The position numbers were made by a program, and so were the translations under genes. Of a stretch of 64,000 bases of DNA, positions 29,779 through 47,250 are shown one piece after another (position 1 is the first letter of the stretch; each line of letters starts with the position of its first letter). Below the pieces are notes generated by a model, which saw only the letters and a program-made list of their open reading frames with translations, was not told the DNA's origin and made no database searches. Source of the DNA: Bacteroidales bacterium UBA4814 (GTDB taxonomy: Bacteria; Bacteroidota; Bacteroidia; Bacteroidales; UBA7960); assembly GCA_002402465.1 (NCBI GenBank), contig DHFW01000002.1, positions 39,027 through 103,026 on the forward strand. Reading direction: 5' to 3'.

Positions 29779-31311
29779 TTAGTCCACATTATCGTGGAGG
29801 AACGAATTATTCGATTTGATCTGTGTGGTGTTGTCGTCGCCTTCGTTGAGGGTGTATCTCGAAACTTGCGATTCTGAGCTAAGCGGTGTATTGTTCAGCA
29901 CTACGTTTCGCCTTACGAAAGCGGGTTGTTTTTCAAGGTCTTGCAGGCCTTCAGGCGTTTTGAGCTTCATGCTGAGTTCGCGCAGGCGTTGTTCACGTTC
30001 CATCATTTTGCGCTTCAGCTCGGCTTCAGAAACCGGGCTTGCTGAGGGTTCGCCCTCGTATGGTGTTTCGCGGGCAGGCCTTTCATAGCTTTGCATCCGG
30101 GTTTCGGGTGTGGCTGGGTTCTGGTTGTTTTCAGAAACCGGGAATTCGAAGGTTACCGGAGCAGGCTCGGGCCTGGTTTCGGTTTTGCTTTCGGCAGGCA
30201 TGTCGGCAGGGGCAGGTGGTTTAATGAACGGCAAGCCGGGTTTATTCTCCTGTTGCATCGGCTGCTGGCTTGCGGCTTGGGTTTGCTCAGACAGGTTCAC
30301 CACCCTTTTTTCTGGAAGTTGTTCGGTTTGAAAAGCGGTGCTTGAAGAGAAACCTGTTGCCACAAGGGTTACGTTGATCTTGGCGCCGAGCGACTCATCC
30401 TTTCCAAGGCCCCAAATAATTTCGGCGGTGCTACCCGATTCCTCCTGGATGTAATCGGTGATCTCGCTGATCTCGTCCATAAGGATTTCTTCGGTTCCGC
30501 TGGTAATGTTGAGAAGAATGTTTTTGGCACCCCTGATGTGGTTGTCGTTGAGCAGGGGCGAAGAGAGGGCCATTTCAATGGCTTGTATGGCGCGGTTTTC
30601 GCCTTCGGCGCTTCCGCTTCCCATAATGGCTACGCCGCTGTTCGACATTACCGTGCGCACATCGGCAAAGTCAACGTTTATATTTCCCGTAAGGGTAATG
30701 ATTTCGGCAATGCCTTTGGCCGCGGTGGTGAGCACATTGTCGGCCCGGGCGAATGCCTCGCTGACCGAAAGGTTACCGTAAAGCTCTCGCAAGCGGTCGT
30801 TGCAAATTACCAGCAGGGTGTCTACATGTTCCTGTAGCTGTTTAATGCCTTCTTCAGCTTGCTGGCGGCGCTTTCGGCCTTCGAACATAAAGGGGATGGT
30901 TACAATACCTACGGTGAGAACGCCCATTTCCTTTGAGGCTTCTGCAATAACGGGTGCGGCCCCGGTGCCGGTACCTCCGCCCATGCCGGCGGTGATAAAC
31001 AACATTTTTGTGCCTTTTTCCAACACCTCCTTGATGCGGTCCAGGTCTTCAATAGCGGCGTTCTTTCCCACTTCGGGAAGGCTGCCTGCTCCGCGGCCAT
31101 CGGTAAGGCTTACGCCCAGCTGAATTTTGTTGGGAACGGGACTCATGTCGAGTGCCTGGCTGTCGGTATTGCACACTAGAAAGTCAACACCTTCAATACC
31201 TTGCTTGAACATATGGTTCACGGCATTGCTGCCACCGCCGCCTACTCCCAGCACTTTAATAATGGAAGACTGGTTTTTTGGCAGGTCGAATTTGATCATG
31301 TCTTTGGTCAT
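29779..31311 (-). CDS. ftsZ: cell division GTPase FtsZ
   Basis: Tubulin signature GMGGGTGTGAAPVIA. Long P/E/Q-rich linker and a PAFVRR C-terminal peptide region. Confidence 0.95.
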   Translation of the reverse strand: MTKDMIKFDLPKNQSSIIKVLGVGGGGSNAVNHMFKQGIEGVDFLVCNTDSQALDMSPVPNKIQLGVSLTDGRGAGSLPEVGKNAAIEDLDRIKEVLEKGTKMLFITAGMGGGTGTGAAPVIAEASKEMGVLTVGIVTIPFMFEGRKRRQQAEEGIKQLQEHVDTLLVICNDRLRELYGNLSVSEAFARADNVLTTAAKGIAEIITLTGNINVDFADVRTVMSNSGVAIMGSGSAEGENRAIQAIEMALSSPLLNDNHIRGAKNILLNITSGTEEILMDEISEITDYIQEESGSTAEIIWGLGKDESLGAKINVTLVATGFSSSTAFQTEQLPEKRVVNLSEQTQAASQQPMQQENKPGLPFIKPPAPADMPAESKTETRPEPAPVTFEFPVSENNQNPATPETRMQSYERPARETPYEGEPSASPVSEAELKRKMMEREQRLRELSMKLKTPEGLQDLEKQPAFVRRNVVLNNTPLSSESQVSRYTLNEGDDNTTQIKSNNSFLHDNVD

Positions 31312-31411
31312 AATTTTCAGGGTTGAAGGTAAATATTTTAAGTAAAAAGGCTTAGCAGAAATTTGTTATTTTATTAACAGATTTTTCCGTCTTATTGTTA
31401 ATAAGATCGGA

Positions 31412-32680
31412 CTAAATGGGTTGGTCTTTTTCAAAGAATTCCATACCTTGATCAAATAACCTCGAGAAGATATTGGTTTTAACCTGGGGCTTGGGTTTTC
31501 TTGTATTGTTTCCTGGCTTCCTAACCTCCTTGCTGTCAAGACCTTTAATTACCAAACCTATGCCGGTGGCATGCATTGGACTTCCGCTTTCGCCCGAAAG
31601 GGTTTTGGCCAGGTGCTCATTGGGATAGCCAATGCGCGTATCCATGCCTGTGATAAACTCGGTGAGCTGGGCGGCGTGGCGCAACTGGCTGCCACCGCCT
31701 GTGAGCACAATGCCTGCAATGAGTTTTTTCTCAAAGCCCGAGTTTTTTATTTCGTACAACACGTGTTCAATAATTTCTTCCATCCGGGCCTGGATGATAT
31801 GGGCCAGGTTCTTGCGCGAAATTTCCTTGGCACCGCGTCCCCTGATTCCCGGAATGGAGATAATTTCCTCGTCCTTGTTTTCGCTGGCCAGGGCTGAACC
31901 GAACATTTTTTTCAGCTCCTCGGCCTGGCTGCGAATAATGGAGCAGCCCTCCTTCACATCGTCGGTAATTACGTTTCCGCCCAGTGGAATTACCGCGGTA
32001 TGCCGAATTATGTCGTCCTGGAAAATGGCAATGTCGGTGGTGCCACCGCCCATATCGACCAGTGCCACCCCAGCTTCTTTTTCTTCGCTGCTGAGTACCG
32101 ATTCAGCCGAAGCCAGGGGCTCGAGGATCATGCTTGAAATCTCGAGGCCGGCCTTCTTTACGCACTTTTCAATGTTTTTTGCGGCCGCCACCTGCCCGGT
32201 AATAATGTGGAAATTGGCTTCCAGGCAAATGCCCGACATGCCAAGGGGCTTGCGCGTGCGTTGCTGATTGTCGATGATAAAATCCTGCGGGATGGCGTGG
32301 ATGATCTCTTCACCCGGAGGCAGCACCAGTTTGTACATGTTTTCGATGAGGTTGTTCACGTCGTCCTGGTTGATCTCATCTTCAAGGCTGTTGCGCATAA
32401 TGTTGCCACGGTGCTGCAAGCTGCGGATATGCTGCCCGGCAATGCCCACGTTTACCAGCTTTATGTCGATGTCAGAGGCTTTGCTGGCTTCATTTACCGC
32501 CTTTATAATTGAGTCAACCGTGTCCTGTATGTTCTCAACCACCCCACGGTTAACTCCCAGGGAGTCGGATCGGCCGAGCCCTAAAATCTCCACCTTTCCG
32601 TATTCGTTTTTTCGGCCAACGATGCAAGCGATCTTGGTTGACCCTATGTCTAATCCGGCGACAATTTCTGATTGTGTCAT
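31412..32680 (-). CDS. ftsA: cell division protein FtsA
   Basis: Actin-like ATPase motifs GLDIGSTKIACIVG and VDMGGGTTDIAIF. Located upstream of ftsZ. Confidence 0.93.
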   Translation of the reverse strand: MTQSEIVAGLDIGSTKIACIVGRKNEYGKVEILGLGRSDSLGVNRGVVENIQDTVDSIIKAVNEASKASDIDIKLVNVGIAGQHIRSLQHRGNIMRNSLEDEINQDDVNNLIENMYKLVLPPGEEIIHAIPQDFIIDNQQRTRKPLGMSGICLEANFHIITGQVAAAKNIEKCVKKAGLEISSMILEPLASAESVLSSEEKEAGVALVDMGGGTTDIAIFQDDIIRHTAVIPLGGNVITDDVKEGCSIIRSQAEELKKMFGSALASENKDEEIISIPGIRGRGAKEISRKNLAHIIQARMEEIIEHVLYEIKNSGFEKKLIAGIVLTGGGSQLRHAAQLTEFITGMDTRIGYPNEHLAKTLSGESGSPMHATGIGLVIKGLDSKEVRKPGNNTRKPKPQVKTNIFSRLFDQGMEFFEKDQPI

Positions 32681-32687
32681 AACAATT

Positions 32688-33479
32688 CTATTTTGAACAA
32701 ATTACCTGGTTACTATACTTCACGTTTATTCTTCTGTAATGGTTCCATCCTGTTCGGGTCAGGCCGTTTTGATAAAAAACCATCAGTTTTTTGAATTTAT
32801 GTTCCATTTGGTCTATGCCTCCAAACTCCACGATATGTCCTCCGTATTTCGGGGTGAGTTCGAATTGTCCGCTTGGGGTTACATAAATGTGATCGATAAA
32901 GGCATTCCAGAAGGGATCGTTTTCGATAAAAGTTGCCATCCGGTGCAAGTCTCTGAGCCTTTGCTCGTTCGAAGATATTTCTTTCGGGTCCTTTTTTTCA
33001 AGCAAATCGGTCAGGGGCGAATACCCGGCATTGATATGGCCGGTGGCAATCAGCACTCTGGCAGTGTAATCGTCGCTCAGGGGCATCATGCGGCCGGCCC
33101 GGTCGATGTAGAAACTATGGTTGTGGGCATTGATTACCCTAAGTATGGGCTGACGTTGTGTAATATCTATGTGCAACTCGCCATTGATATTGCGAAAGAC
33201 GCTGGCCTTCTGCACATAGGGTATGCCCTGAACCACCGATTCAATCTGCCTTAATTTACCGTCGGCAATGGGCTTGCCTTCAATTTCGCTGGTAGCATTC
33301 AGCACCTTGGCTTTTACGGCTTCGGCTTCAATGAAGTGATGCCCGCAGTGGTAATCGATGCTTACCTGCAAAGGGCTGCTGGGAAGCTGACGGTTTTGTT
33401 CCACGGCAAATCCCAGCAAAAGGAACAGACCTGCCGGAATGGCAATCAGAAGCAATATGTTGAGTATTTTTCTGATCAT
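32688..33479 (-). CDS. ftsQ: cell division protein FtsQ-like
   Basis: Single N-terminal TM followed by a POTRA-like region. Located between murC and ftsA. Its ATG overlaps the murC stop (ATGA). Confidence 0.75.
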   Translation of the reverse strand: MIRKILNILLLIAIPAGLFLLLGFAVEQNRQLPSSPLQVSIDYHCGHHFIEAEAVKAKVLNATSEIEGKPIADGKLRQIESVVQGIPYVQKASVFRNINGELHIDITQRQPILRVINAHNHSFYIDRAGRMMPLSDDYTARVLIATGHINAGYSPLTDLLEKKDPKEISSNEQRLRDLHRMATFIENDPFWNAFIDHIYVTPSGQFELTPKYGGHIVEFGGIDQMEHKFKKLMVFYQNGLTRTGWNHYRRINVKYSNQVICSK

Positions 33480-34834
33480 AATCCTTTATTTTTCAAAAAC
33501 ATGACAATTTCGGGCACCAGCCGGTCAATATCGCCGGCTCCCATAGTAAGCAAAACTTCAGGGGGATGTGTCTCCAATTCTGAAATAATTTCTTCTTTTT
33601 TCAACAATTTCTTTTGGGGCAATTCAATTTTTTCGAGTAGCATAGCCGAGGTGATCCCTTCAATGGGCAATTCCCTTGCGGGATAAATGTCGAGCAGCAG
33701 AAGGCGATCTGCCAAAGCCAGGCTTTCGGCAAATTGTTTGGCCAGGTCACGGGTGCGGCTGTAGAGGTGGGGCTGGAAAACGGCCGTAATTTCCCTTCCG
33801 GGGAATAATTCTCTGGCAGCCCCAATGCAAGCCCTGATCTCTTCGGGGTGGTGAGCGTAGTCATCAATAAATACGGTTTTCGGTCCCTGGTGGCAGGTTT
33901 CGAAGCGGCGCTTCACTCCTTTAAAGGTGGAAAGGGCCCGTGCTACCACCTCGGGGGCAATGCCCACAGACCAGGCAATGGCTGCGGCACCCAGCGCATT
34001 TTCAAGGTTGTGGCGGCCCGGCATGCCAAGGGCAAATTGACTGGTTTGCAATAAGCCGTCGATTGCTGTAAAATACTGGCCGTTCTTCACTTCCGTATTT
34101 TTAGACATAAAGTCGGCATTTTCTCCGGTGTAGTAAGTAAGGGTGCGGCCTTTAAAAGCCTGCCCTGCGTGCAGACCTTTCTTTATCACCAGTGTTCCAT
34201 CAGGGTTTATGCGGGCAGCAAATTCGGCAAAGCTGTTTTGCAGGGCTTCTTCCGTGCCGTAAATGTCGAGGTGGTCGGCATCGGTGGAGCTTATAAGGGC
34301 CATGGCCGGCCTGAGGCTCAGGAAGGAGCGATCGAACTCATCGGCTTCCACTACCATCCACCGCGGGTTTTCATCGTCCAGATAGTTTGTCTGATAGTTG
34401 GTGCTGATGCCTCCAAGGAAGGCCATGGTTTTTATGCCGGCGGTTTTCAGTATGTGAGCCACCATGGTGCTGATGGTGGTCTTCCCGTGTGTGCCGGCAA
34501 TGGCAATGGTGGGCAACTGGCCCGAGATCAGTCCAAGCAGTTCGGCTCGTTTTATCACCGGTACGCTTTTCGCACAAAGCGAAGTCAACAAAAAGGAGTT
34601 TTTGGGAATTGCCGGGGTGTAAACAGCCAGGTCGATCTGGGAGGGCAGCACACTCGCCTGTTCGTCAAACCAAACGTTTATGCCTTCGTTTTGCAAAGCC
34701 TCCGTTACGGGTGAAGGGGTTCTGTCGTAACCGCTCACATTTACTCCCCGGGCATTGAAGTAGCGTGCAAGGGCGCTCATGCCAATGCCGCCAATACCCA
34801 GGAAAAAGATGTTATGTAAGCGGTTCATATCCAT
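33476..34834 (-). CDS. murC: UDP-N-acetylmuramate--L-alanine ligase
   Basis: N-terminus FFLGIGGIGMSALARYF, ATP site GTHGKTT, dcw position. Confidence 0.92.
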   Translation of the reverse strand: MDMNRLHNIFFLGIGGIGMSALARYFNARGVNVSGYDRTPSPVTEALQNEGINVWFDEQASVLPSQIDLAVYTPAIPKNSFLLTSLCAKSVPVIKRAELLGLISGQLPTIAIAGTHGKTTISTMVAHILKTAGIKTMAFLGGISTNYQTNYLDDENPRWMVVEADEFDRSFLSLRPAMALISSTDADHLDIYGTEEALQNSFAEFAARINPDGTLVIKKGLHAGQAFKGRTLTYYTGENADFMSKNTEVKNGQYFTAIDGLLQTSQFALGMPGRHNLENALGAAAIAWSVGIAPEVVARALSTFKGVKRRFETCHQGPKTVFIDDYAHHPEEIRACIGAARELFPGREITAVFQPHLYSRTRDLAKQFAESLALADRLLLLDIYPARELPIEGITSAMLLEKIELPQKKLLKKEEIISELETHPPEVLLTMGAGDIDRLVPEIVMFLKNKGL

Positions 34835-34835
34835 T

Positions 34836-35960
34836 TTATTTTGTTTTTACCAGACTGAGTGCTACGCCAGCAATTACATCGGCTGCATCGCGAAACGATA
34901 GCCCTACCAAGCGTTCCTTCAGTCTGAATTTCTTTTCTTCGTCCTTCATGAGGTCGAGCACTACCGGCCCTAGTTTTTTGGTGGCTTCGTTGTCTTTAAT
35001 CAGTATAGCAGCATGATGATTGACCAGGGCCAGGGCATTTTTTGTTTGGTGATCTTCGGCCACGTTGGGCGAAGGGATGAGAATAGCTGGTTTTTGCACG
35101 GTGCAAATTTCGGAAACGGCTATGGCGCCTGCCCGGCTCACCACCACATCGGCTGCGGCATAGGCCAAATCCATGTGGTCGATAAACCGGGTTACATACA
35201 CGCCTTTATCATAGCCTTTGGCCTGCTCAAGAGCCTGCTGGTAATAGATGGTTCCAGTTTGCCATATCACCTGTATGCCGTTTTGCATAAAAAGCGAAAG
35301 GTTTTTGCTGATGCTTTCGTTTATGGTGCGCGCCCCCAGGCTGCCGCCGGTAACAAAAAGTACTGGCTTGTCTGGAGTAAAACCAAAGAAATCCATGGCT
35401 TTTTCGTATTTCCCTTCCATGCTCACAATGTCCTGCCGCACGGGGTTCCCTGTAAGGAACAGCTTTGACTTGTCGAAGAAGCGTTCCATGCCATCGTAGG
35501 CCACACAAATTTTGTCGGCTTTTTTGCCCAGTATTCGGTTGGTAAGGCCCGGAAAAGAATTTTGTTCCTGGATCAAGATAGGTACCCCTTGCTTTGCTGC
35601 CGCCCTTACCAGTGGTCCGCTGGCATAGCCTCCCACGCCGATCACCACATCGGGTTTGAATCGTTTTACGATGTTTCTGGCCCTTAGCATGCTGTCGCAC
35701 AGCTTAAAGGGTACTTGCAGGTTTTTCCAGGTGAGCCTGCGTTGCAAGCCCGAAATATTGAGCCCGATAATATGGAAACCTGCCGCCGGAACCTTTTTCA
35801 TTTCCATACGGCCCTTTGCCCCAACAAAAAGAATCTTGGCATTGTACACCTTCTTTTTGATGGCCAGGGCAATGGCAATGGCCGGGAACACATGACCCCC
35901 GGTACCTCCGCCGGCAATAATTACCCGCAGCGCCTCAGCTTGTTGTAATTGGTCTTCCAT
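34836..35960 (-). CDS. murG: undecaprenyldiphospho-muramoylpentapeptide beta-N-acetylglucosaminyltransferase
   Basis: IIAGGGTGGHVFPAIA N-terminal motif, dcw position. Confidence 0.92.
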   Translation of the reverse strand: MEDQLQQAEALRVIIAGGGTGGHVFPAIAIALAIKKKVYNAKILFVGAKGRMEMKKVPAAGFHIIGLNISGLQRRLTWKNLQVPFKLCDSMLRARNIVKRFKPDVVIGVGGYASGPLVRAAAKQGVPILIQEQNSFPGLTNRILGKKADKICVAYDGMERFFDKSKLFLTGNPVRQDIVSMEGKYEKAMDFFGFTPDKPVLFVTGGSLGARTINESISKNLSLFMQNGIQVIWQTGTIYYQQALEQAKGYDKGVYVTRFIDHMDLAYAAADVVVSRAGAIAVSEICTVQKPAILIPSPNVAEDHQTKNALALVNHHAAILIKDNEATKKLGPVVLDLMKDEEKKFRLKERLVGLSFRDAADVIAGVALSLVKTK

Positions 35961-37086
35961 TTATTTCGTCTTCTTCAATCTTCCTGCTAACACTTAAAAT
36001 GATACCTATGGCCAGGCTCGAGAACCACAGCGAAGTACCGCCCATGCTGATCAATGGCAGGGGCTGGCCCGTCACGGGAAAAAGATCTACGGAAACAGCC
36101 ATGTTGATCATGGCCTGAAATACCAGGCTGAAACTTAATCCAGCCGCCAGCAGTGCCCCGAAAGTTCCGGGACTTTGTTTGGAGATTTTTATGGCCCGGT
36201 AAAAAAGAATGAGATACAGCAGCAACACAAAAAACCCTCCGGCAATGCCGTATTCTTCAATAATAATGGCATAGATAAAATCGGAATATGCATGTGGCAG
36301 GAAGTTGCGCTGGGTTGATTTTCCAGGCATCTTTCCTATAATGCCACCCGAGGCAATGGCAATCTTGGCTTGCCGCACCTGGTAGGTGTCGCCCGATTTT
36401 GTAAAAAAGGTTGTAATACGTGTACCCCATACCGAAACACGGCTTTCGGGCATTTTTGATGCCACAAAAACAAACAGCATTAGGCTTAACACTCCAATAC
36501 CGGCAAAGGCAGCCAGGTATTTTAGGTTAACCCCCCCGATATACATCAGTATGATGCAGGTGGCAAAGAGTATGGCAGCCGTGGAAAGGTTGGCCGGAAG
36601 AATAAGCAACGTTATGATTAACACAGGGATAAGTATAGGCACAAATGCCTCCTTAAAGTCTTTGATGCTATCCTGCTTTTTAGTAAGCATACGGGCCACG
36701 TACATAATCAGTGCCAGTTTGGCAAAGTCGGAGCTTTGAAAGCTGATGTTGATGATAGGCAGGGTAAGCCAGCGGCTGGCTTCGTTGATATTGGTCCCTT
36801 TTACCAGAGTAAACAGCAGCAATGGCACCGCCACCCACAAAGCCAGTTGCGATATGCGTGAGTAGTAGGTATACTTAATTCGGCTGGCCAGCCACATAAG
36901 CCCAAGGCCAAGCAGCATAATAACAAAGTGCTTGATGATGTAATATTCGGTATTTCCCGAACGGTATTTGTAGGCCAGTGACCCTGTAGAGCTGTATACA
37001 GCCAGCAGCGAGAAGATGGATAGAAATATCACCACCATCCAAATGGCCCTGTCGCCTTTTATTTTTTCCAGCACTTTATTCATCAT
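35935..37086 (-). CDS. ftsW: FtsW (SEDS family peptidoglycan glycosyltransferase)
   Basis: Polytopic FtsW/RodA/SpoVE-like protein between murD and murG. Confidence 0.88.
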   Translation of the reverse strand: MMNKVLEKIKGDRAIWMVVIFLSIFSLLAVYSSTGSLAYKYRSGNTEYYIIKHFVIMLLGLGLMWLASRIKYTYYSRISQLALWVAVPLLLFTLVKGTNINEASRWLTLPIINISFQSSDFAKLALIMYVARMLTKKQDSIKDFKEAFVPILIPVLIITLLILPANLSTAAILFATCIILMYIGGVNLKYLAAFAGIGVLSLMLFVFVASKMPESRVSVWGTRITTFFTKSGDTYQVRQAKIAIASGGIIGKMPGKSTQRNFLPHAYSDFIYAIIIEEYGIAGGFFVLLLYLILFYRAIKISKQSPGTFGALLAAGLSFSLVFQAMINMAVSVDLFPVTGQPLPLISMGGTSLWFSSLAIGIILSVSRKIEEDEINGRPITTS

Positions 37087-37095
37087 TTGGTTTTT

Positions 37096-38436
37096 TTACA
37101 AATCATAAACAGCCTGTTTAAACTGTCGTCCGCGGTCTTCAAAATTTTCGAAGAGGTCGAAGCTGGCGCAAGCTGGCGAAAGCAACACCACGTCGCCCGG
37201 TACACCAGCCAGATAGGCTGCTTTTACGGCATCGCGTGCGGTGCGCGTTTCGAAAATAGCCGGAACAATGGCTCCAAACACTTCTTTTATGCGGCTGTTC
37301 TCCTTGCCAAGGCAAACAATGGCCTTTACCTTTTTTTCAACCAGCTCGAGCAGGCCGCTGTAGTCGTTGCCTTTGTCCTGGCCGCCAACCACCCATATTA
37401 CGGGCTTATTCATCGACTCCAGGGCGTACCAGGTAGAGTTTACGTTGGTGGCCTTGCTGTCGTTAATAAATTCAATGCCGCGCACAAAGCCAAGGGGTTC
37501 AAGCCTGTGCTCCACGTTCTGGAAGTCGCTCAGCCCTTCGCGTATCACTTCTTTGCGGATGTCGAGCAGGCGGGCGGCAATGCCGCTTGCCATACTGTTG
37601 TAAATGTTGTGTCGTCCCTTCAGGCTCAGCTCAAGGATATCCATCTTGAATTCTTCAGTATTTAGGTTAATATTCAATTTTTCGTTCTTGTCGGTCCAGG
37701 CTCCTTCCTTTAAAACTTGTTTGGTGCTGAAAGGAATCAGCCGTGGCCCATCTGTTTTTTGCACCAACCTTGCTTGCAGCACGGGGTCGTCAGCACAGAA
37801 AATGCAGTGCTGCCGCGGTGTCTGGTTTTGCATAATGCGCAGTTTCGATGCAATGTATTTTTCAAAGCTGTGGTCGTATCGGTCGAGGTGATCGTGCGTA
37901 ATGTTTAGCAGCACGGCAATATCGGCCTTGAATTTCTCCATTCCATCGAGCTGAAAAGAAGAAATTTCGAGCACATACACCCCATGCTTTTGCTCAGCCA
38001 CCTGCCAGGCAAAACTGCTTCCCACATTGCCTGCAATGCCAACGTTTAAGCCGGCCTTTTTCAGGATGTGGCCTGTGAGCAGGGTAGTGGTAGTTTTGCC
38101 GTTGCTGCCGGTGATGCAAATGGTTGGTGCCTGGTTGTACCTTCCGGCAAACTCAATTTCAGAAACCACTGGTATGCCCTTGGCTCGAATGGTTTTTACC
38201 ACTGGTGCCCAATCGGGAATGCCTGGGCTTTTCATAACCTCATCGGCATTCAGAATCAACGCCTCCGAATGCTTCGCCTCTTCCCAGCTTATTTCATGAT
38301 GTAAAAGAGCGTCCTTGTATTGTTTTTTTATGGACTGCAGGTCAGAAACAAACACTTCCCAGCCTTTTTTCCGGGCCAAAATGGCCGTTCCTGTTCCGCT
38401 TTCTCCCGCTCCCAGTATGACCAGCCGCCCGCCCAT
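37096..38436 (-). CDS. murD: UDP-N-acetylmuramoylalanine--D-glutamate ligase
   Basis: LGAGESGTG N-terminus, GSNGKTTT ATP site, dcw position. Confidence 0.92.
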   Translation of the reverse strand: MGGRLVILGAGESGTGTAILARKKGWEVFVSDLQSIKKQYKDALLHHEISWEEAKHSEALILNADEVMKSPGIPDWAPVVKTIRAKGIPVVSEIEFAGRYNQAPTICITGSNGKTTTTLLTGHILKKAGLNVGIAGNVGSSFAWQVAEQKHGVYVLEISSFQLDGMEKFKADIAVLLNITHDHLDRYDHSFEKYIASKLRIMQNQTPRQHCIFCADDPVLQARLVQKTDGPRLIPFSTKQVLKEGAWTDKNEKLNINLNTEEFKMDILELSLKGRHNIYNSMASGIAARLLDIRKEVIREGLSDFQNVEHRLEPLGFVRGIEFINDSKATNVNSTWYALESMNKPVIWVVGGQDKGNDYSGLLELVEKKVKAIVCLGKENSRIKEVFGAIVPAIFETRTARDAVKAAYLAGVPGDVVLLSPACASFDLFENFEDRGRQFKQAVYDL

Positions 38437-38441
38437 TTATT

Positions 38442-39698
38442 TTATCTCAATTTCAGGGTTATCACACTGAACACCGCCAGAATGATGCCCACAATTAAAA
38501 AGCGCTGCACAATCTTGGCCTCGTGGTAACCCAACAACTGATAGTGGTGGTGCAGGGGGGCCATTTTAAAAATTCGCCTTCCTTCGCCAAAACGCTTTTT
38601 GGTGTATTTGAACCAGCTCACCTGCATAACCACCGAAAGGTTTTCTATGAAAAACACCCCGCAAAGCACCGGAATGAGCAACTCCTTGCGTATTACAATG
38701 GCAAACACGGCAATGATGCCACCCAGGGCCAGGCTGCCTGTGTCGCCCATAAAGACCTGTGCCGGGTAGGTGTTGTACCATAAAAAACCTATGCAGGCTC
38801 CCACAAAGGCGGCAATGAAAATAACCAGCTCGCCTGTCATGGGTATATACATGATGTTGAGGTAGTTGGCAAAAACGGTATTGCCCGAAACATAAGCCAA
38901 CACCCCCAGGGTTGCCCCGATGATGGCCGAAGTGCCTGTGGCCAGGCCATCGAGCCCATCGGTAATATTGGCTCCGTTCGATACCGCCGTAATAATGAGT
39001 ATAACAATGGGAATAAAGATCAGAAAGGCCCATTTGGTATAGCCTTCGCCCAGCCACTTCAGCAGCACAGCGTAGTCTAACTCATTGTTTTTGAAAAAAG
39101 GTATGGTGGTCTTGGTCGATTTTACCGACTCTCTCGAAAATGCTGCACCAGGGCTTTTGGCATCATCAATGATTAGTATTTCGCTGGTGGTTTCAAAAGC
39201 AAAGCTCTCCTGGCCTTTTTCGCGAATCACCACCGAGTCGTTAAAATAAAGAGTGGCCCCCACTACAATGCCCAGGGTAATCTGCCCCAAAATTTTAAAT
39301 TTCCCGTGAAGGCCTTTTTTGTTCTTTTTGAAAACCTTGATATAATCGTCAATAAAGCCAATAATTCCAAGCCAAATGGTTGAAACCAGCATCAGAATTA
39401 TATAAATGTTGTCAATTCGGGCAAACAGCAGGGTGGGTATAACAATGGCGGCAATAATAATGATTCCACCCATGGTTGGGGTTCCCTGCTTTTTCATTTG
39501 CCCTTCCAGCCCCAGGTTTCTTACTACCTCGCCCACCTGCTTTTTCTGTAGGAAACGAATGATGCTGCGGCCCGAGATCATGGTGATAAAGAGTGAAAAG
39601 ATCACTGCCATACCTGCCCTGAACGAGATATACTGGAATACTCCCGTTCCGGGTATGTCAAAGGCTTTATCCAGGTATTCGAACAAATAATACAGCAT
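38442..39698 (-). CDS. mraY: phospho-N-acetylmuramoyl-pentapeptide transferase
   Basis: Polytopic protein with MraY blocks ([30 protein letters not shown]). Confidence 0.93.
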
Positions 39699-39726
39699 CT
39701 GCAGCTCTTTTAAAATTTTCAGTTTC

Positions 39727-41178
39727 TCAGGCCAGGTATTCCATTAAAATTTCTTTATCGTCAAAGGGGTGTTTCACCCCTTTTATTTCCTGGTATTTTT
39801 CATGTCCTTTTCCGGCCACCAGAACAATGTCGCCGGGGTTTGCCATGGCGCAGGCCGCATTAATGGCATCGCGGCGGTTTATCACAGTCACCGTATGGCG
39901 TTTGCTCATGGGGTCGAGGCCGGTTTTCATATCTTCAATAATTTTTTCCGGTTCTTCAAAGCGGGGGTTGTCGCTGGTGAGTATCACCTTGTTGCTTAGC
40001 CTTGCGGCGATGGCTGCCATGGCTGGCCTTTTTGCAGCGTCGCGGTTGCCGCCGCATCCCACTACTGTAATGAGCTTCTCGGAGCCGGTGCGAAGGCTGG
40101 CAATAGTGCTCAGCACGTTTTCCAGGGCATCGGGGGTATGGGCATAGTCGATAATGCCAATCCTGTTTTCCCTTCCGGGGAAAAAGTCGAAGCGGCCTTC
40201 GGCAGGGCGGCAGCTGCTCAGGGGGGTAAGCACCTCTTCAGGCTCAAGCCCCAGCATGCGGGCCGCAGAATATACAGCCAGCAAGTTGTAAGCGTTAAAC
40301 TCGCCCACCAGCTTGCACCAAACTTCCCGTCCTTCAATCAATAGTTGTAAGCCAGCAAATCCATTTTCGAGCACTTTGCCCTTGAAGTCGGCCATGGCAC
40401 GCAGGCTGTATGTTTTTTTTATTGCCCGGGTATTTTGTAGCATTACCCAGCCATTCTTGTCGTCGGTGTTGGTTATGGCGAAAGCCTGCGCATCGAGTTG
40501 GTCGAAGAACGTTTTTTTCGCTTTCAGGTATTCGCTGAAGGTTTTGTGGAAATCCAGGTGGTCGTGGGTCAGGTTGGTAAAAATGCCACCGGCAAAATGT
40601 AGCCCTGCAATGCGCTGCTGGGCCACAGCATGTGAACTCACTTCCATAAAAGCAAACTCGCAGCCTGCCTCCACCATTTGCCTGAGCAAGTCGTTTAGCT
40701 GAACCGGGTCGGGAGTGGTGTAAGTGGCTGGAATCTCCTTTTGTCCAACCAGGTTCCGAACCGTGGAGATCATTCCGCAAGCGTATCCCAAACGGGTAAA
40801 CAGGTCGTGAAGCAAGGTTACTACCGTTGTTTTGCCGTTGGTGCCGGTTACTCCAATCAGACGAATCTTTTCGGAAGGATTTCCAAAGATGTTCGCTGCA
40901 ACAACTCCCAGGGCATGGGCCGAATCTTTAACCCTGATAATGGTGGCTTCTTTGCTGATTTTTTCTGGTATTTCCTGGCAAACGATGGCCACCGCACCAC
41001 TTTGAACCGCCTTTTCAATAAAAAGATGGCCATCGGTGGTAAGCCCTTTTATGGCTACAAACAGTGTTCCTGGCTTAACCTTACGCGAGTCGAACTCTAC
41101 AGCCAGCACTTCCCTGTCGAGCACCCCGTGGGTTTCGAGCAGTTCGGCCTTGTATAATATGTCGCGTAAGTTTCCCAC
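39727..41178 (-). CDS. murE: UDP-N-acetylmuramoyl-L-alanyl-D-glutamate--2,6-diaminopimelate ligase
   Basis: [10 protein letters not shown], the [10 protein letters not shown] (DNPR) motif, GTG start at 41178. Confidence 0.9.
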
Positions 41179-41188
41179 TTTTTTAAAA

Positions 41189-43288
41189 TCAATTTAATTC
41201 AATGTAAATCTGGTTTCCCGGACTAAACCTTACGCCGGGCTGCAGGCTTTGCCGCTTTACGACACCTCGTCCGCTGAATCGAACCCTCAGGCCTGCGTTT
41301 TCAAGAACAAAAAAGGCATCTTTTAGTCCCATGCCTACCACGTCGGGAACCAGGTTGTCAATAAAATTCTTTTCCCAGAAGCTCACTGTGTCGTTTTTGG
41401 CCACGGTGGTTGCCCAGGCGGTTTGAATATTATCGATGAGCTTGCAGTCGAAGGCCGAATAAATGGTGCGGAAATCGTCGGCATTTCCGTTTTTAAACGA
41501 AGGCAGCGAAGTCAGCAGGTTGTCGAAGCCGGGCTGGGGATAATTTATCTGGGTGGCAAATATTTTATCGGAAATTTCCTTAAAAACAGGCGCCGCCAGT
41601 TGTCCGCCGCTATACAAAACCCCTCTGGGGTTGTGAATGACCACAATGATACTGTAGGCAGGTTGGTCGGCAGGGAAATAGCCTACAAACGAGGAGCGGT
41701 AAGAAGTGCGGCCATGCACGTTGCGGTATCCCTGGCTGGTGTTGGCCACCTGTGCGGTACCGGTTTTCCCGGCAATGGGGTAAAGGGAGCTATAAATGTT
41801 TTTCGCCGTGCCATTCTCCACTACTCCAATGAGCATCTCATGAATGGTTTCGAGGGTAGAACTGCTGGCAATGCTTCTGTTTATTACCTGCGGCTGAAAT
41901 CGCTGTATTGTTTTTCCTGTTTGCCTGATTTCTTCCACAAACATGGGCTTCATCATGCGGCCTTTGTTTGCCACCGCATTGTAAAACGAAAGGGTTTGCA
42001 AGGGTGTAAGAGAAACGCCATACCCTATCGACATCCAAGGAAGTGAAACGCCCGACCAGGAAGGGCTTTTGGGATCGGTGATCATGGGCTGCCCCTCTCC
42101 GGTAATTTCCAGTTCCAGGGGTTTGTCGAGGCCCATAGCCTTGAGCTTGTCAACAAATTGCTGGGGCTTGTCCTTATAGGCTTTTACCACCAGTTGCGAG
42201 ATGCCCACGTTTGACGATACTTCGAATGCACGCCTGGCTGTAATGCTCCCGAAGCCGCCCTCTTTGGCATCGCGCATTACCTGGTCGGCGTAGGCAATGC
42301 TTCCGTTGCCGGTGTGCACCATCTCTTCGGGCTTAACCTTTCCGTCTTCAAGCAGGGCAATCATGCTGGCAAGCTTAAAGGTGGAGCCAGGCTCTGTGCT
42401 TTCGCCCACGGCGTAATTGAAGGTTTCTTCATAGTTTCCCGAGGGGCGGCGGGTCAGGTTGGAGATGGCCTTGATCTTTCCGGTCGAAACCTCCATAACC
42501 ACCGCTGTGCCAAACTCTGCTTTCGACCTTTGAAGCTGCCTTAAAAGGGCGTTTTCTACAATATCCTGCATGCTAATGTTAATGGTGGTGATCAGGTCCT
42601 TGCCGTTTTCGGGCTGAATTTCGTTGTCGTCGTTTATGGGTACCCAGCTGCCGCCCCCGGCGCGTAGCATAAGCCTTTTTCCCTGGATACCTTCGAGTTC
42701 CTTTCTGTAAGCTCCTTCCAGACCCACATAAACGCCCTCGCGCTCATAACCGATGGTACGCTGGGCCATGGTGCGGTAAGGCATTTCGCGGCGCGAACGC
42801 TCAATAGGCAGAAACCCTCCGCGGAATCTCCCCAGCCTGAAAATGGGGAAAGTACGCAGGGCCTGCAACTGATGGTAAGAAACGTTGCGTTTTACCAGAA
42901 AATAGCGGTCTTGGTTTTTTCGGGCTGTGTTCAGGTCAGCAAGATAACCGGCTTTCGACCGGTCGCCAAAAAGTTGTGAAAGCAGCAGGGCCAGAGAGTC
43001 AATGCCTTGATTGTAAACCTCATCCGATACTACCTGGTTGCTGAGGTCCATCCTGATTTCATAAACAGGCACGCTGGTAGCCAGCAAGCGGCCATCGTCG
43101 GCGCAAATGTCGCCTCTTATGGCATCGATGTTTTCGATGCGCATGCTGGATATCCTGGCCATCTCGCGCCATTTTTCGCCCTCAACAGCCTGAATATAAA
43201 TAACCCTGAACAGGATAGCCATGCCCAGCAGCACCATGGCAAAATAAACCAGGTAAAGGCGTTGTATTATGTGCTTTTTGTCGTCCAT
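41189..43288 (-). CDS. ftsI: penicillin-binding protein (FtsI/PBP3-type transpeptidase) with C-terminal PASTA domain
   Basis: SxxK GSTFKL, SSN (SSNVG), KTG (GKTGTA). C-terminal PASTA-like VPDVVGMGLKDAFFVLENAGLRV. Confidence 0.9.
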   Translation of the reverse strand: MDDKKHIIQRLYLVYFAMVLLGMAILFRVIYIQAVEGEKWREMARISSMRIENIDAIRGDICADDGRLLATSVPVYEIRMDLSNQVVSDEVYNQGIDSLALLLSQLFGDRSKAGYLADLNTARKNQDRYFLVKRNVSYHQLQALRTFPIFRLGRFRGGFLPIERSRREMPYRTMAQRTIGYEREGVYVGLEGAYRKELEGIQGKRLMLRAGGGSWVPINDDNEIQPENGKDLITTINISMQDIVENALLRQLQRSKAEFGTAVVMEVSTGKIKAISNLTRRPSGNYEETFNYAVGESTEPGSTFKLASMIALLEDGKVKPEEMVHTGNGSIAYADQVMRDAKEGGFGSITARRAFEVSSNVGISQLVVKAYKDKPQQFVDKLKAMGLDKPLELEITGEGQPMITDPKSPSWSGVSLPWMSIGYGVSLTPLQTLSFYNAVANKGRMMKPMFVEEIRQTGKTIQRFQPQVINRSIASSSTLETIHEMLIGVVENGTAKNIYSSLYPIAGKTGTAQVANTSQGYRNVHGRTSYRSSFVGYFPADQPAYSIIVVIHNPRGVLYSGGQLAAPVFKEISDKIFATQINYPQPGFDNLLTSLPSFKNGNADDFRTIYSAFDCKLIDNIQTAWATTVAKNDTVSFWEKNFIDNLVPDVVGMGLKDAFFVLENAGLRVRFSGRGVVKRQSLQPGVRFSPGNQIYIELN

Positions 43289-43313
43289 TGTGGGCTTGCC
43301 TGTTGCTGTGTGC

Positions 43314-43715
43314 TTAGTTCAACCACCTATTTAAAATATTTGCTTTTTTTCTTTCATCCGAAATTTGCAGGGGAGGGACGGTCGACTCTACAAAGCCCCT
43401 GCTTTGCAACCTGCGGGCAATCTCGGACTGATTACTCAGATACATAAGCTCCGACTTGGTGAGGGTGTGCCGGGTGCGCAGTTCCACTATTTCCTTTCGC
43501 AGGGCTTCCACCTCCCGTGCCTGCCTTTCGGCGTAATAAGTGTTTGAAATGAAAAAAAGGCCCAACCCGGCCAGGAAAAAGAAAAAAGGCATAGATGAAG
43601 CCACTTTGTCGCGTGCCAGCATGCTGCCATCGAGCATCGATTGGATGAAACGCGAAACCGCTCCCTTTCTGGTTGCTGTTTTTTTCACCTTTTTTTTGTA
43701 ACTGTTTCCCCCCAT
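43314..43715 (-). CDS. FtsL-like cell division protein
   Basis: Basic N-terminus, one TM (MPFFFFLAGLGLFFISN), then a coiled coil. Located between rsmH and ftsI. Confidence 0.65.
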   Translation of the reverse strand: MGGNSYKKKVKKTATRKGAVSRFIQSMLDGSMLARDKVASSMPFFFFLAGLGLFFISNTYYAERQAREVEALRKEIVELRTRHTLTKSELMYLSNQSEIARRLQSRGFVESTVPPLQISDERKKANILNRWLN

Positions 43716-43730
43716 TTGTTAAACCCGTAT

Positions 43731-44630
43731 TTATTCTCTTTTTTCTGCTATTCGTAGCCTTGCACTTCGTGCCCGGCTGTTGCGCTCCATTTCTTCGGGC
43801 GCAGGCATTATGGTTTTGCCAACTGCAACCAGGGGTGTGAGCGGGTTGCCAAAAAAATCCTTTTCAATTTCTCCCCTGAAGTTGCCCGACCTCATAAAGT
43901 GCTTTACCAGCCTGTCTTCGAGCGAATGGTATGAGATAACTACCAATCTTCCTCCGGGCCTTAGTACCTCGGCACTCTGTACAAGGAACTCCCTGAGGGC
44001 ATCCAACTCCTGGTTCACTTCAATGCGCAGGGCCTGAAAAACCTGTGCAAAGAATTTGTTTTCCTTTCCCCTGGGTGCCAGTTTGTTCAACAGGGCAGTG
44101 AGCTGTGTGGTGGTGTTGATGGGCGCCACCTTACGCTGCTTGTCAATGGCTCCGGCAATCTTGTAGGCGTTTCGCAATTCACCGTAAAGGAAAAACACGT
44201 CGGCAAGTTTCTCGCTTGGGTATTCATTTACCACATCTCTTGCTGTGAGGCCTGCTTCGCGATTCATTCGCATGTCGAGCGGCCCTTCAAACCGGGTAGA
44301 AAAGCCCCTTTCGGCTTGGTCGAACTGATGCGAAGACACGCCCAGATCGGCCAATATGCCATCAACTGGCAGCAGGCCGTAAAGCTTCAGGAAGTTTCTC
44401 ATATACCTGAAGTTCTGGTTCAGAAATAGAATGCGATAATCGTCGGGCACGTTGGCTGCAGCATCCTTGTCCTGGTCTATGGCAATGAGTTTTCCCTGCT
44501 GAAGCTTTTCGAGTATGAGTGCCGAATGCCCGCCCCCGCCGTAGGTAGCGTCGACGTAGCGACCGCCGGGGAGGACGTTCAGGCCTTCAACGGCAGCTTC
44601 AGCCAGTACCGGGTCATGATAGGTTTTCAT
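43731..44630 (-). CDS. rsmH: 16S rRNA (cytosine1402-N4)-methyltransferase
   Basis: DATYGGGGHS motif, dcw position after mraZ. Confidence 0.92.
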   Translation of the reverse strand: MKTYHDPVLAEAAVEGLNVLPGGRYVDATYGGGGHSALILEKLQQGKLIAIDQDKDAAANVPDDYRILFLNQNFRYMRNFLKLYGLLPVDGILADLGVSSHQFDQAERGFSTRFEGPLDMRMNREAGLTARDVVNEYPSEKLADVFFLYGELRNAYKIAGAIDKQRKVAPINTTTQLTALLNKLAPRGKENKFFAQVFQALRIEVNQELDALREFLVQSAEVLRPGGRLVVISYHSLEDRLVKHFMRSGNFRGEIEKDFFGNPLTPLVAVGKTIMPAPEEMERNSRARSARLRIAEKRE

Positions 44631-45090
44631 CGCCGGATTGATTACTTATCTTACCCATAACATCCTCTGCCAAAGAGGAGAAGTCTTCCGGTTCGTTGTT
44701 CATCATTGCCTCATAAACCGCTTTTGCCCAGATTTCCACCCTTTGTCCGTATGCAAAAAGAACGATTTCCTTATCAATGACCGCATAGTCGAGCAGGGTC
44801 TTGGGCAACAAAAGCCTGCTGGCTGCGTCCAGGGCAATCTCGGAGGCGCCCCTGAAGAAATAGCGTACAAATTCGCGGTTCTTCTTGTTATAAAGATTCA
44901 GCGAGTTTACTTCACGCGAAATCTTCTGCCACTCGCTTTGCGGGTAAAGCGTAAGGTTTCTTTCAAAACCGCGGTTAATGACAAAACGCTCCTGGTCGTC
45001 TTCCGAAAGTTGCTTTTTCAAGCCGGAAGGCAACATGAAGCGGCCTTTGGAATCGACCTTACAATCAAATTCTCCAAGCAGATAGGTCAT
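44614..45090 (-). CDS. mraZ: transcriptional regulator MraZ
   Basis: Two SpoVT/AbrB-type DxxGR-like motifs (VDSKGRFMLP, LDAASRLLLP). I prefer ATG 45090 (MTYLLGEFDCKVD) to the track start at 45129. Confidence 0.88.
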   Translation of the reverse strand: MTYLLGEFDCKVDSKGRFMLPSGLKKQLSEDDQERFVINRGFERNLTLYPQSEWQKISREVNSLNLYNKKNREFVRYFFRGASEIALDAASRLLLPKTLLDYAVIDKEIVLFAYGQRVEIWAKAVYEAMMNNEPEDFSSLAEDVMGKISNQSGDENLS

Positions 45091-45129
45091 TCTCCCACGG
45101 TTTGGTTTTAGTTTGTAAATATAAGGCAA

Positions 45130-45159
45130 TTTTTACCACTTTTTACCACTTTTTACCAC
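45130..45159 (-). promoter_or_regulatory. candidate MraZ operator: three perfect 10-bp direct repeats
   Basis: Plus strand TTTTTACCAC x3, which is GTGGTAAAAA x3 on the gene strand (AAAGTGG boxes with TAA spacers). Located 40-70 nt upstream of the mraZ ATG. A TATATTTA -7-like box sits at 45116-45123. Confidence 0.7.
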
Positions 45160-45320
45160 ATTGTTAATAACTTTTTGCCTCATAAAGCCGCTGATTTAAA
45201 GAATAACTCTGTAAACCACTGATAACCAGGATAAAATGCATTTAATGCATTAATGTGAAAAACACATGTTTTTGAAATACAGATTCTTAACTATTGCAGT
45301 ATTTTTTATTGAATTATCCT

Positions 45321-45328
45321 TAATTTTG
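45321..45328 (+). promoter_or_regulatory. candidate -7 box TAATTTTG
   Basis: Perfect TAnnTTTG, 83 nt upstream of ATG 45411. The -33 element is poor. Confidence 0.3.
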
Positions 45329-45410
45329 TGAATGTAGTGCTTGTTCTGCCGGTGGGGCTCTCCGGACTGTTCGGGTTCTTTTCAGGTATTATTTTATTTT
45401 TTTTAAATCT

Positions 45411-46274
45411 ATGACAGACAGTCAAATAGCCAGAGAATCAGGGGAAATCAGGGATTTCATAAATGTGGACAGTGTTTTCAGGAAAAAAGGAGGGAATATC
45501 TATCCATACATTCCGGGTTTTGTTATTCGTTATATTGAACATATTGTGCATCAGGACGAACTGAACGCGGCATTGAAGCGTTTGCATCATAAAAAGAATT
45601 TGGAATTTCTGGAAGAGGTTCTTTTGAATGAGTTTGGGGTAGAGATTGAAGCCAGGAACCTGGAAAATATACCCGATCAGGGCAGGTTTATTATAGCGGG
45701 CAACCATCCGCTTGGCGGTATGGATGGTATGGCATTGATGCACGTGGTGGGTAAGAAACACCCTAATTTAAAATTTCTGGCCAACGATATTTTGCTTGAA
45801 ATTCCGAACCTGCGCGAGTTGTTTGTGCCGGTAAACAAGCACGGGCGCAGCACCCACGAAACGGTTCGCATTATGGATGAGCTTTTCAACTCGGATGATG
45901 TGGTGCTGGTGTTTCCGGCGGGCCTGGTTTCGCGCAAGCAAAAGGGAGGTATTTCCGACCTCGAGTGGAAAAAGACCTTCATTACCAAGGCCATCAAATA
46001 CCAGCGCGACATACTACCCGTGCACATTGATGGTGAGAACTCAAATTTTTTCTACAATCTGGCCCGCTGGCGCAAAAGGCTCAGGATAAAGGCAAACATT
46101 GAAATGCTTTACCTGCCCAACGAAATGTTCAAACAGAAAAACAAAAAAATTACGATTACCTTTGGTGAGCCTGTATCCTATACTACCTTTAACCGGGAGT
46201 TAACGCATCAGCAGTGGGCTGACCGACTGAAGGCGCATGTTTACGGTATTCCTGGCGGACACCTGCAGTTTTAA
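45411..46274 (+). CDS. lysophospholipid/1-acyl-glycerol-3-phosphate-type O-acyltransferase (GlsA/OlsA-like)
   Basis: HX4D acyltransferase motif GNHPLGGMDG; 287 aa. Adjacent to a hemolysin-like GNAT N-acyltransferase. Confidence 0.65.
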   Translation: MTDSQIARESGEIRDFINVDSVFRKKGGNIYPYIPGFVIRYIEHIVHQDELNAALKRLHHKKNLEFLEEVLLNEFGVEIEARNLENIPDQGRFIIAGNHPLGGMDGMALMHVVGKKHPNLKFLANDILLEIPNLRELFVPVNKHGRSTHETVRIMDELFNSDDVVLVFPAGLVSRKQKGGISDLEWKKTFITKAIKYQRDILPVHIDGENSNFFYNLARWRKRLRIKANIEMLYLPNEMFKQKNKKITITFGEPVSYTTFNRELTHQQWADRLKAHVYGIPGGHLQF

Positions 46275-46302
46275 TATTAATGGTTCCAAACATGAAAGAA
46301 AT

Positions 46303-47250
46303 ATGAAGGAGCAGGAAGAAGGACTGATCCCACCCGTAAGCAGGGATTTGTTGAAAGCAGAACTAACAAGGGAGCGATTTTTGCGAAATACCAACAATGC
46401 TTCCAACGAGATATACGTGGTCAATGCCAATAATTCGCCCAATGTTATGCGTGAAATCGGCAGGCTGCGTGAACTGTCGTTTCGTACGGCCGGAGGGGGT
46501 ACTGGCAAAGCCCTCGATATTGACCATTACGATACCGGTGCCAACCCTTATGAGCAGCTCATCGTTTGGGATCCGGCAGCCGAGGAAATACTGGGAGGCT
46601 ACCGCTATATCTTATGTAAAGATGCACCCATCGACAGCCTTGGGGTTCCAAAACTGGCCACCTCAGAATTGTTTCGCTTCTCCGAGAAGTTTCTTTCCGA
46701 ATATATGCCCTATACCATCGAACTGGGGCGGTCTTTTGTGCAGCCTGCCTATCAGCCGGCACGCGAAAACCGCAAAAGCATTTACTCACTCGATAATTTA
46801 TGGGATGGTCTGGGTGCGCTGATGGTCGATTACCCTGAAATGCGTTATTTTTTCGGAAAAGTAACCATGTACACCCATTTCAATATATACGCCCGCGATC
46901 TTATTTTGTATTTCCTGGGCCGGTTTTTCCCCGACCCCGACAAACTAGTTTTTCCCATTAATCCGATTCAACTAAAAACGCCGGTTGAAATACTGGAAAA
47001 GGTTTTTACTGCCGAAACCCTGGAGGACAACTACAAGCTTTTATCAAAAGAAGTAAGAAAACTCAAGGAGAACATACCGCCACTCATCAGCGCTTACAGT
47101 GCCCTGAGCTCCACCATGAAAACCTTTGGCACCGCTATTAACGAAGGATTCGGTGGCGTGGAAGAAACCGGAATACTGGTTACCTTGGGCGATATTTATG
47201 AGGGTAAAAAAGAGCGTTATGTCAGGAGTTATATCGAGTCGAAAAAATAG
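46303..47250 (+). CDS. GNAT-fold hemolysin-like N-acyltransferase (GlsB/OlsB-like)
   Basis: Start chosen at ATG 46303 (MKEQEEGLIPPV...). The sequence block GRLRELSFRTAGGGTGKALDIDHYD resembles OlsB-type amino-acid N-acyltransferases. Confidence 0.6.
   Translation: MKEQEEGLIPPVSRDLLKAELTRERFLRNTNNASNEIYVVNANNSPNVMREIGRLRELSFRTAGGGTGKALDIDHYDTGANPYEQLIVWDPAAEEILGGYRYILCKDAPIDSLGVPKLATSELFRFSEKFLSEYMPYTIELGRSFVQPAYQPARENRKSIYSLDNLWDGLGALMVDYPEMRYFFGKVTMYTHFNIYARDLILYFLGRFFPDPDKLVFPINPIQLKTPVEILEKVFTAETLEDNYKLLSKEVRKLKENIPPLISAYSALSSTMKTFGTAINEGFGGVEETGILVTLGDIYEGKKERYVRSYIESKK

Follow-up and report, generated by a model that had tools for sequence, protein, structure and literature searches.

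What is the role of three perfect 10-bp repeats that lie immediately upstream of mraZ in this Bacteroidales genome? The first-pass annotation of the locus had read them as a likely MraZ operator for the whole dcw cluster, and we followed up this proposal in the window (the whole 64-kb stretch of DNA that was analysed) and in related loci. On the minus strand, GTGGTAAAAA occurs three times in tandem between 45159 and 45130, as perfect copies at 45159-45150, 45149-45140 and 45139-45130. The array is preceded by caaT and followed by ttgcc, the wider minus-strand context being ...aaaaagttattaacaaT-GTGGTAAAAA-GTGGTAAAAA-GTGGTAAAAA-ttgccTTATATTTAcaaactaaaaccaaaccGTGGgagaATG. Each unit consists of a GTGG core and a TAAAAA spacer, and we refer to the units as box 1 (45150-45159, core 45159-45156), box 2 (45140-45149, core 45149-45146) and box 3 (45130-45139, core 45139-45136). 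Tandem Repeats Finder (TRF) reports 3.0 copies of period 10 with 100% matches at 45130-45159. Exact GTGGTAAAAA is found five times in the window, three of which form the array, and the pattern GTGK-N6-GTGK-N6-GTGK is found once in the 64 kb, both strands included, where 0.07 occurrences are expected from shuffles. The coordinates of the three repeats had thus been given correctly, and both TRF and the shuffles place the array well beyond chance. It lies 69-40 nt upstream of the mraZ ATG (45090), in agreement with the 40-70 nt first noted. Searching the window and 410 kb of loci for more double GTGG boxes returned only chance or coding-sequence matches. A further ACCAC at 45215-45219, which the first-pass annotation had described as in phase, is indeed present, at a distance of 60 bp from box 1. 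The closest relatives (L001-L004) lack it, however, and it is not conserved. We therefore treated it as a chance match and rejected it as a fifth in-phase box.

The array is conserved across Bacteroidota. A scan by MraZ alignment, with one genome per species, gave 80 loci, all from Bacteroidales or Sphingobacteriales-type MAGs, with MraZ identities of 64-94%. The comparison set comprised 78 sources with at least 120 nt of upstream sequence, namely the window and 77 loci. GTGK is present three times at exact 10-bp spacing upstream of mraZ in 77 of the 78, and exact GTGG-N6-GTGG-N6-GTGG in 69; the sole exception, L045, has no recognisable operator in the 480 nt upstream of its mraZ. Box 1 reads GTG[G/T] in 77/78 orthologous upstream regions, while box 2 is the most conserved, its GTGG being nearly invariant, and box 3 is likewise assigned from sequence and conservation. 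GTGT variants of box 1 or box 3 occur in several loci (L008, L013, L037, L040, L043, L052, L062 and L064), and two (L011 and L016) carry four perfect units instead of three. The spacers drift yet remain A-rich (TAAAAA, GAAAAA, TAAAAT, TAAATT), which gives a lineage box consensus of GTGG[T/G]AAAA[A/T], near the AAAGTG[T/G] of Mollicutes. When the sequences were aligned on the array, conservation set in 17 nt before box 1 and reached about 52 nt beyond it; upstream of position -18 of this alignment there was none. Ten further loci were fetched via individual proteins and included Solitalea canadensis, Anseongella ginsenosidimutans, Saprospiraceae and Vicingaceae MAGs and a TARA scaffold, among others. 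Nine of these ten have the exact triple array, and the remaining one has two boxes and ATGG. Alignment of the regions upstream of mraZ orthologues, the check proposed together with the original claim, thus came out in its favour in both sets.

We then consider the gene that follows the array. mraZ (44614-45090, minus strand) encodes a 158-aa protein (Pfam PF02381, 1e-28), the presumed cognate regulator. It heads a 13-gene dcw cluster with ftsZ at its end, the rest of which (29779-44630, minus strand) consists of rsmH, ftsL-like, ftsI, murE, mraY, murD, ftsW, murG, murC, an ftsQ-like ORF, ftsA and ftsZ. The ftsL-like gene is of the Bacteroidetes type, and the ftsQ position is held by an ftsQ-sized ORF. 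All genes are co-directional and tightly packed, from which it is plausible that the array would serve as operator for the whole dcw cluster. Such clusters commonly contain internal promoters. Among PDB entries, the window MraZ matches 1n0e and 9qlr with E values of 1e-18 to 1e-19, its residues 4-142 aligning with the M. genitalium and M. pneumoniae structures. In this alignment, window D13, K15, R17, D88 and R92 correspond to M. genitalium D11, K13, R15, D82 and R86. The five residues are invariant in 19 relatives and both DXXXR motifs are kept (D13-x-K15-x-R17 and D88-xxx-R92), indicating that the head that reads GTG(G/T) is intact.

MraZ boxes are known from Mycoplasma, B. subtilis, E. coli and Burkholderia. 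A box consists of GTG(G/T) and a 6-nt spacer and is present in three to four copies, a definition backed by EMSA, reporter assays and cryo-EM (PMC12957436; bioRxiv 10.1101/2022.02.09.479790; PMC7761207). The published descriptions give three boxes for most bacteria and four for some mycoplasmas, and present MraZ binding as cooperative (PMC12957436). In the window, three GTG(G/T) direct repeats with a 10-bp period are found in the promoter region at the head of the dcw cluster, together with the reading residues and a phylogenetic footprint. The array is very probably an MraZ binding site of the kind already known in other bacteria. We give a probability of roughly 0.8 to the three GTGGTAAAAA units being the operator of the MraZ encoded just downstream, with autorepression as its most likely function. 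The operator proposal of the first-pass annotation is thereby supported by the MraZ gene downstream, the 77/78 conservation and the nine further loci, the match to the published box, the invariant reading residues and the fixed offset of the -7-like box described below.

How would such an operator act on the promoter? The primary sigma factor of Bacteroidota recognizes TAnnTTTG at -7 and TTTG near -33 (PMC7366714). Downstream of the array, TATATTTA (45116-45123, minus strand) matches TAnnTTTG at 7/8 positions and is the sole forward TAnnTTT-like motif in the conserved block. Its position had been correctly noted at first reading, and Bacteroidales-type loci keep the box as TATATTTAC, at a constant 16 nt from box 3; in Sphingobacteriales-type loci it reads TAATTTTAC, 14 nt from box 3. 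TATATTTA is without the final G of the consensus and no TTTG -33 motif is visible before it, so the promoter assignment is a prediction. From the position of this box, transcription is predicted to start at 45109-45113 (minus strand), 4-8 nt past TATATTTA(C) and some 20 nt ahead of the ATG. If TATATTTA is the -7 box, then boxes 1, 2 and 3 would lie at about -47, -37 and -27, which would put box 2 at about -37 to -34. The predicted -7 box (45123-45116) at its fixed offset is the sole sequence pointer to a possible overlap between operator and core promoter. A sigma-70 scan of 44900-45500, with a model that is not relevant to Bacteroidota promoters, gave weak matches near 45390-45440 only, and an Rfam scan of 44900-45600 gave zero matches. 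No usable mraZ TSS entry was found in the B. thetaiotaomicron dRNA-seq supplements.

Another GTGG, which we call box 4, lies in the 5' leader (45095-45098, minus strand), 41 nt from box 3, that is about four helical turns away and on the same face. Of 65 distinct Bacteroidales-type regions, 41 have GTG[G/T] at +41/42 from box 3, where 0.2 are expected from composition shuffles, which gave 2 at most. Between the -7 box and the ATG, no GTGK was found outside +40 to +45. Box 4 is 61-62 bp from box 1, which corresponds to six steps of about 10.3 bp. The flanks of box 4 differ widely, and between 7 and 12 nt separate it from the ATG. Since this spacing is variable while the offset from box 3 is fixed, box 4 is tied to the register of the operator and promoter, not to the start codon. 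It would lie at about +15 of the predicted start, and a single MraZ oligomer, if extended, could conceivably span the distance to it and so enclose the core promoter.

We compared this arrangement with the known MraZ operators. The M. genitalium operator (PMC12957436) has four GTG(T/G) boxes with 6-nt spacers and a TSS inside box 1. In the cryo-EM structure described there, the subunits of an opened octamer each put a K13/R15/R86 'cradle' into a TG(T/G) major groove, and the box consensus of Mollicutes is AAAGTG[T/G] (PMC12957436). The two operators share the GTGG/GTGT core, the 10-bp register, A-rich spacers and the location of the direct repeats just upstream of mraZ, and K13, R15 and R86 correspond to window K15, R17 and R92. 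They differ in that M. genitalium has four boxes where three are contiguous here, and in that its TSS lies in box 1 whereas the boxes of the window are predicted upstream of the -7 box. The +41/42 box and the 17-nt element described below are features of the window for which the available text of PMC12957436 holds no mention in M. genitalium. In B. subtilis, three MBRs of sequence GTGG[A/T]G with 4-nt spacers are needed for repression of the mra operon (bioRxiv 10.1101/2022.02.09.479790). Three GTGG at a 10-bp period are common to both, the triple being unique in the genome there and in the window here. The B. subtilis promoter has sigma-A -35/-10 elements as opposed to Bacteroidota -33/-7 elements, and its repeats read GTGG[A/T]G as opposed to GTGG[T/G]A.

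In the two proteobacterial cases the boxes are placed differently. The E. coli K-12 site, read from the genome sequence, is TTGACA-N17-TAAACT-cctttca-GTGGGaaattGTGGGgcaaaGTGGG, so that the E. coli core is also GTGG. As in the window, the repeats (GTGGG, three times) have exact 10-bp spacing and lie upstream of mraZ. The E. coli boxes, however, come after the -10 box and extend over the start, an arrangement suggestive of a roadblock, whereas here the triple array comes before the -7 box and only box 4 lies in the leader. Eraso et al. 2014 reportedly described the MraZ boxes of E. coli Pmra and MraZ as an autorepressor of the dcw operon. B. cenocepacia has four 7-nt repeats with 3-nt spacers, and MraZ shifts the fragment in EMSA (PMC7761207). 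These repeats also contain GTG, have a 10-bp period and lie upstream of mraZ, but the four are contiguous, downstream of the -10 box and over the TSS, with a 100-nt leader (PMC7761207). In a literature coverage that was incomplete, we found no published work on a Bacteroidota MraZ or on the site that it binds.

With this placement, autorepression would come about by promoter occlusion. MraZ is a SpoVT/AbrB-type regulator and, by analogy with the M. genitalium complex, the subunits of its oligomer would place their K15/R17/R92 cradles in successive major grooves, in which GTGG would recur with every helical turn on the same face of the DNA. With boxes at about -47 to -24, bound MraZ would occupy the -33 region used by the primary sigma factor, and box 4 at about +15 (45098-45095) would probably extend the complex across the core promoter. 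The most likely outcome would be repression of mraZ itself and, at a minimum, of the promoter-proximal dcw genes.

Activation may be considered as the main alternative to autorepression, and sequence alone cannot decide between the two. In this reading MraZ at -47 to -24, together with curved, phased A5 tracts, would act positively or architecturally to recruit or stabilise RNA polymerase at a weak promoter and activate dcw. An activator, too, could work from boxes centred upstream of -24, and those of the window precede the predicted -7 box instead of covering it or the start, whereas in E. coli and B. cenocepacia they come after the -10 box. The -7 box TATATTTA is moreover sub-consensus with its -33 TTTG absent, and the A-tracts in the spacers are conserved, one per helical turn. 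An M. genitalium study notes that FtsZ levels were raised when MraZ was overexpressed in M. gallisepticum (PMC8475190), so the sign of MraZ regulation may differ between species. Nevertheless, in E. coli, B. subtilis and M. genitalium alike, MraZ acts through the same type of box to repress the operon to which it belongs. Box 2 lies where the -33 contact is expected, and a conserved box 4 at about +15 is a better fit to a roadblock or a promoter-enveloping complex. We consider activation improbable.

A different feature of the conserved block is a 17-nt element, AAAAAGTTATTAACAAT (consensus AAAAAGTTATYAACAAT), that directly adjoins box 1 (45160-45176, minus strand). Across 59 Bacteroidales-type loci its information content equals that of the boxes. 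It does not occur elsewhere in the window and is found only twice outside the mraZ upstream regions in 410 kb of loci, as chance or coding-sequence matches, and in the four-unit arrays it still adjoins the first box. Sphingobacteriales-type loci carry it in the same place as the exact reverse complement (GTTGAWAACTTTTT; CATGTTGAWAACTTTTT-GTGG). The loci named with this observation are L066-L080, L082, L086, L088 and L090. In Solitalea and Anseongella, the flipped element is GTGGAAAACTTTT(T), with GTGG replacing GTTG, which hints that it could be an auxiliary MraZ box. More generally, the element may be an auxiliary operator element or the site of a partner protein; as it is no less conserved than the boxes, another factor may share the site. 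The distal box and the 17-nt element are two accessories that have apparently been undescribed so far. We propose tentatively, as a possibility that we regard as doubtful, a composite operator in which the 17-nt element, in either orientation, is joined with box 4, and an MraZ oligomer, or MraZ and a partner, would coat the entire core promoter, about -65 to +18.

The orientation of the element tracks the direction of the upstream gene, a correlation that is confounded with phylogeny: the upstream gene is divergent in about 65 loci (Bacteroidales, Saprospiraceae-like and Vicingaceae-like) and co-directional in Sphingobacteriales-type loci. In the window the divergent gene upstream of mraZ belongs to Acyltransf_2 (45411-46274, plus strand) and is followed by an Acetyltransf_5 gene (46237-47250, plus strand), the second of the acyltransferase operon. 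The pair resembles the glycine-lipid/commendamide synthesis pair. Acyltransf_2 orthologues lie upstream and divergent in 60 related loci, separated from mraZ by 270-575 bp; the same divergent acyltransferase-mraZ arrangement is seen in Saprospiraceae-like L083, L089 and L091, and Vicingaceae-like loci have a hydrolase as the divergent gene instead. We considered the 17-nt element, which reads TAACTTTT on the bottom strand, as a -7 box for the acyltransferase operon, and rejected this role. The acyltransferase gene has its own perfect TAnnTTTG, TAATTTTG (45321-45328, plus strand), about 60-90 nt before the ATG in the window and in most relatives; conservation of this box makes a divergent-promoter role of the element unlikely. 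In the acyltransferase leader itself (45334-45410, plus strand, roughly 80 nt), a hairpin precedes a long U-rich tract, which lies immediately ahead of the ATG. The hairpin has a dG of -16.8 kcal/mol and a z of -1.9, with no match in Rfam, and the leader could be attenuator-like.

The 17-nt element also bears on whether a protein other than MraZ mainly binds the repeats and this element as a composite, be it IHF/HU-like, DnaA-like or some other Bacteroidota regulator, with MraZ incidental. The element is conserved like the boxes and always adjoins box 1. Its TTATYAACA matches 8/9 positions of the DnaA-box consensus TTWTNCACA, and its TATCAA-N4-GTG resembles the IHF consensus WATCAA-N4-TTR. These matches are partial and imperfect at critical consensus positions, and we set aside the element as a DnaA box or an IHF site. 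The core, spacing and copy number of the repeats, on the other hand, agree exactly with the MraZ box as defined by experiment, the array is always found together with mraZ, and the true GTGG in the flipped element of Solitalea and Anseongella points to MraZ. Binding mainly by another protein therefore seems very improbable to us.

Finally, a functionless tandem duplication, arising by replication slippage in A+T-rich intergenic DNA, or an N-terminally extended mraZ frame would account for three perfectly identical units, for a copy number that varies (four units in L011 and L016) and for database calls that extend mraZ through the array (such as P0082, 187 aa, and P0119), but the comparative data effectively refute both: GTGG cores keep their exact spacing across two orders and other Bacteroidota lineages while the spacers drift and the flanks are unalignable, the conserved N-terminus (M-T/A-x-L-x-G-E) begins at ATG 45090, and the longest ORF of the window (44614-45129, 171 aa) starts at 45129, downstream of the array. 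The TTG at 45129 was rejected as the start for the same reason, the conserved N-terminus lying at the ATG. Many MraZ entries in databases are 170-190 aa long (P0082, P0119, P0022 and P0028, among others), because gene callers run the ORF upstream through the operator; one over-extended N-terminus, ...KSGKKWEKSLYIYTFKP, is the GTGG array and the -7 box in translation. Elsewhere in the window, an ORF (26745-28001, minus strand) with a pseudouridine synthase (RluB/RluF-like) as its C-terminal part contains a tandem repeat of 54 bp at 27658-27854 (3.6 copies, 76% matches, TRF score 198). This repeat would encode an 18-aa repeat in an N-terminal extension of the pseudouridine synthase ORF.

These results overturn no known biology, and a specialist would not be surprised by them. 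They provide a comparatively validated MraZ box for Bacteroidota, (A)AAA-GTGG at a 10-bp period, and with this definition, gene calls in which mraZ is mistakenly extended across its operator can be recognised. The array offers ready probes and mutations for EMSA or reporter work, and the distal box and the 17-nt element are cheap leads. If the composite operator with a partner protein were true, the expression of division genes could be coupled through this partner to a further signal. Mollicutes, Firmicutes and Proteobacteria have the same box core and the same residues to read it, while the placement of the boxes relative to the promoter differs.
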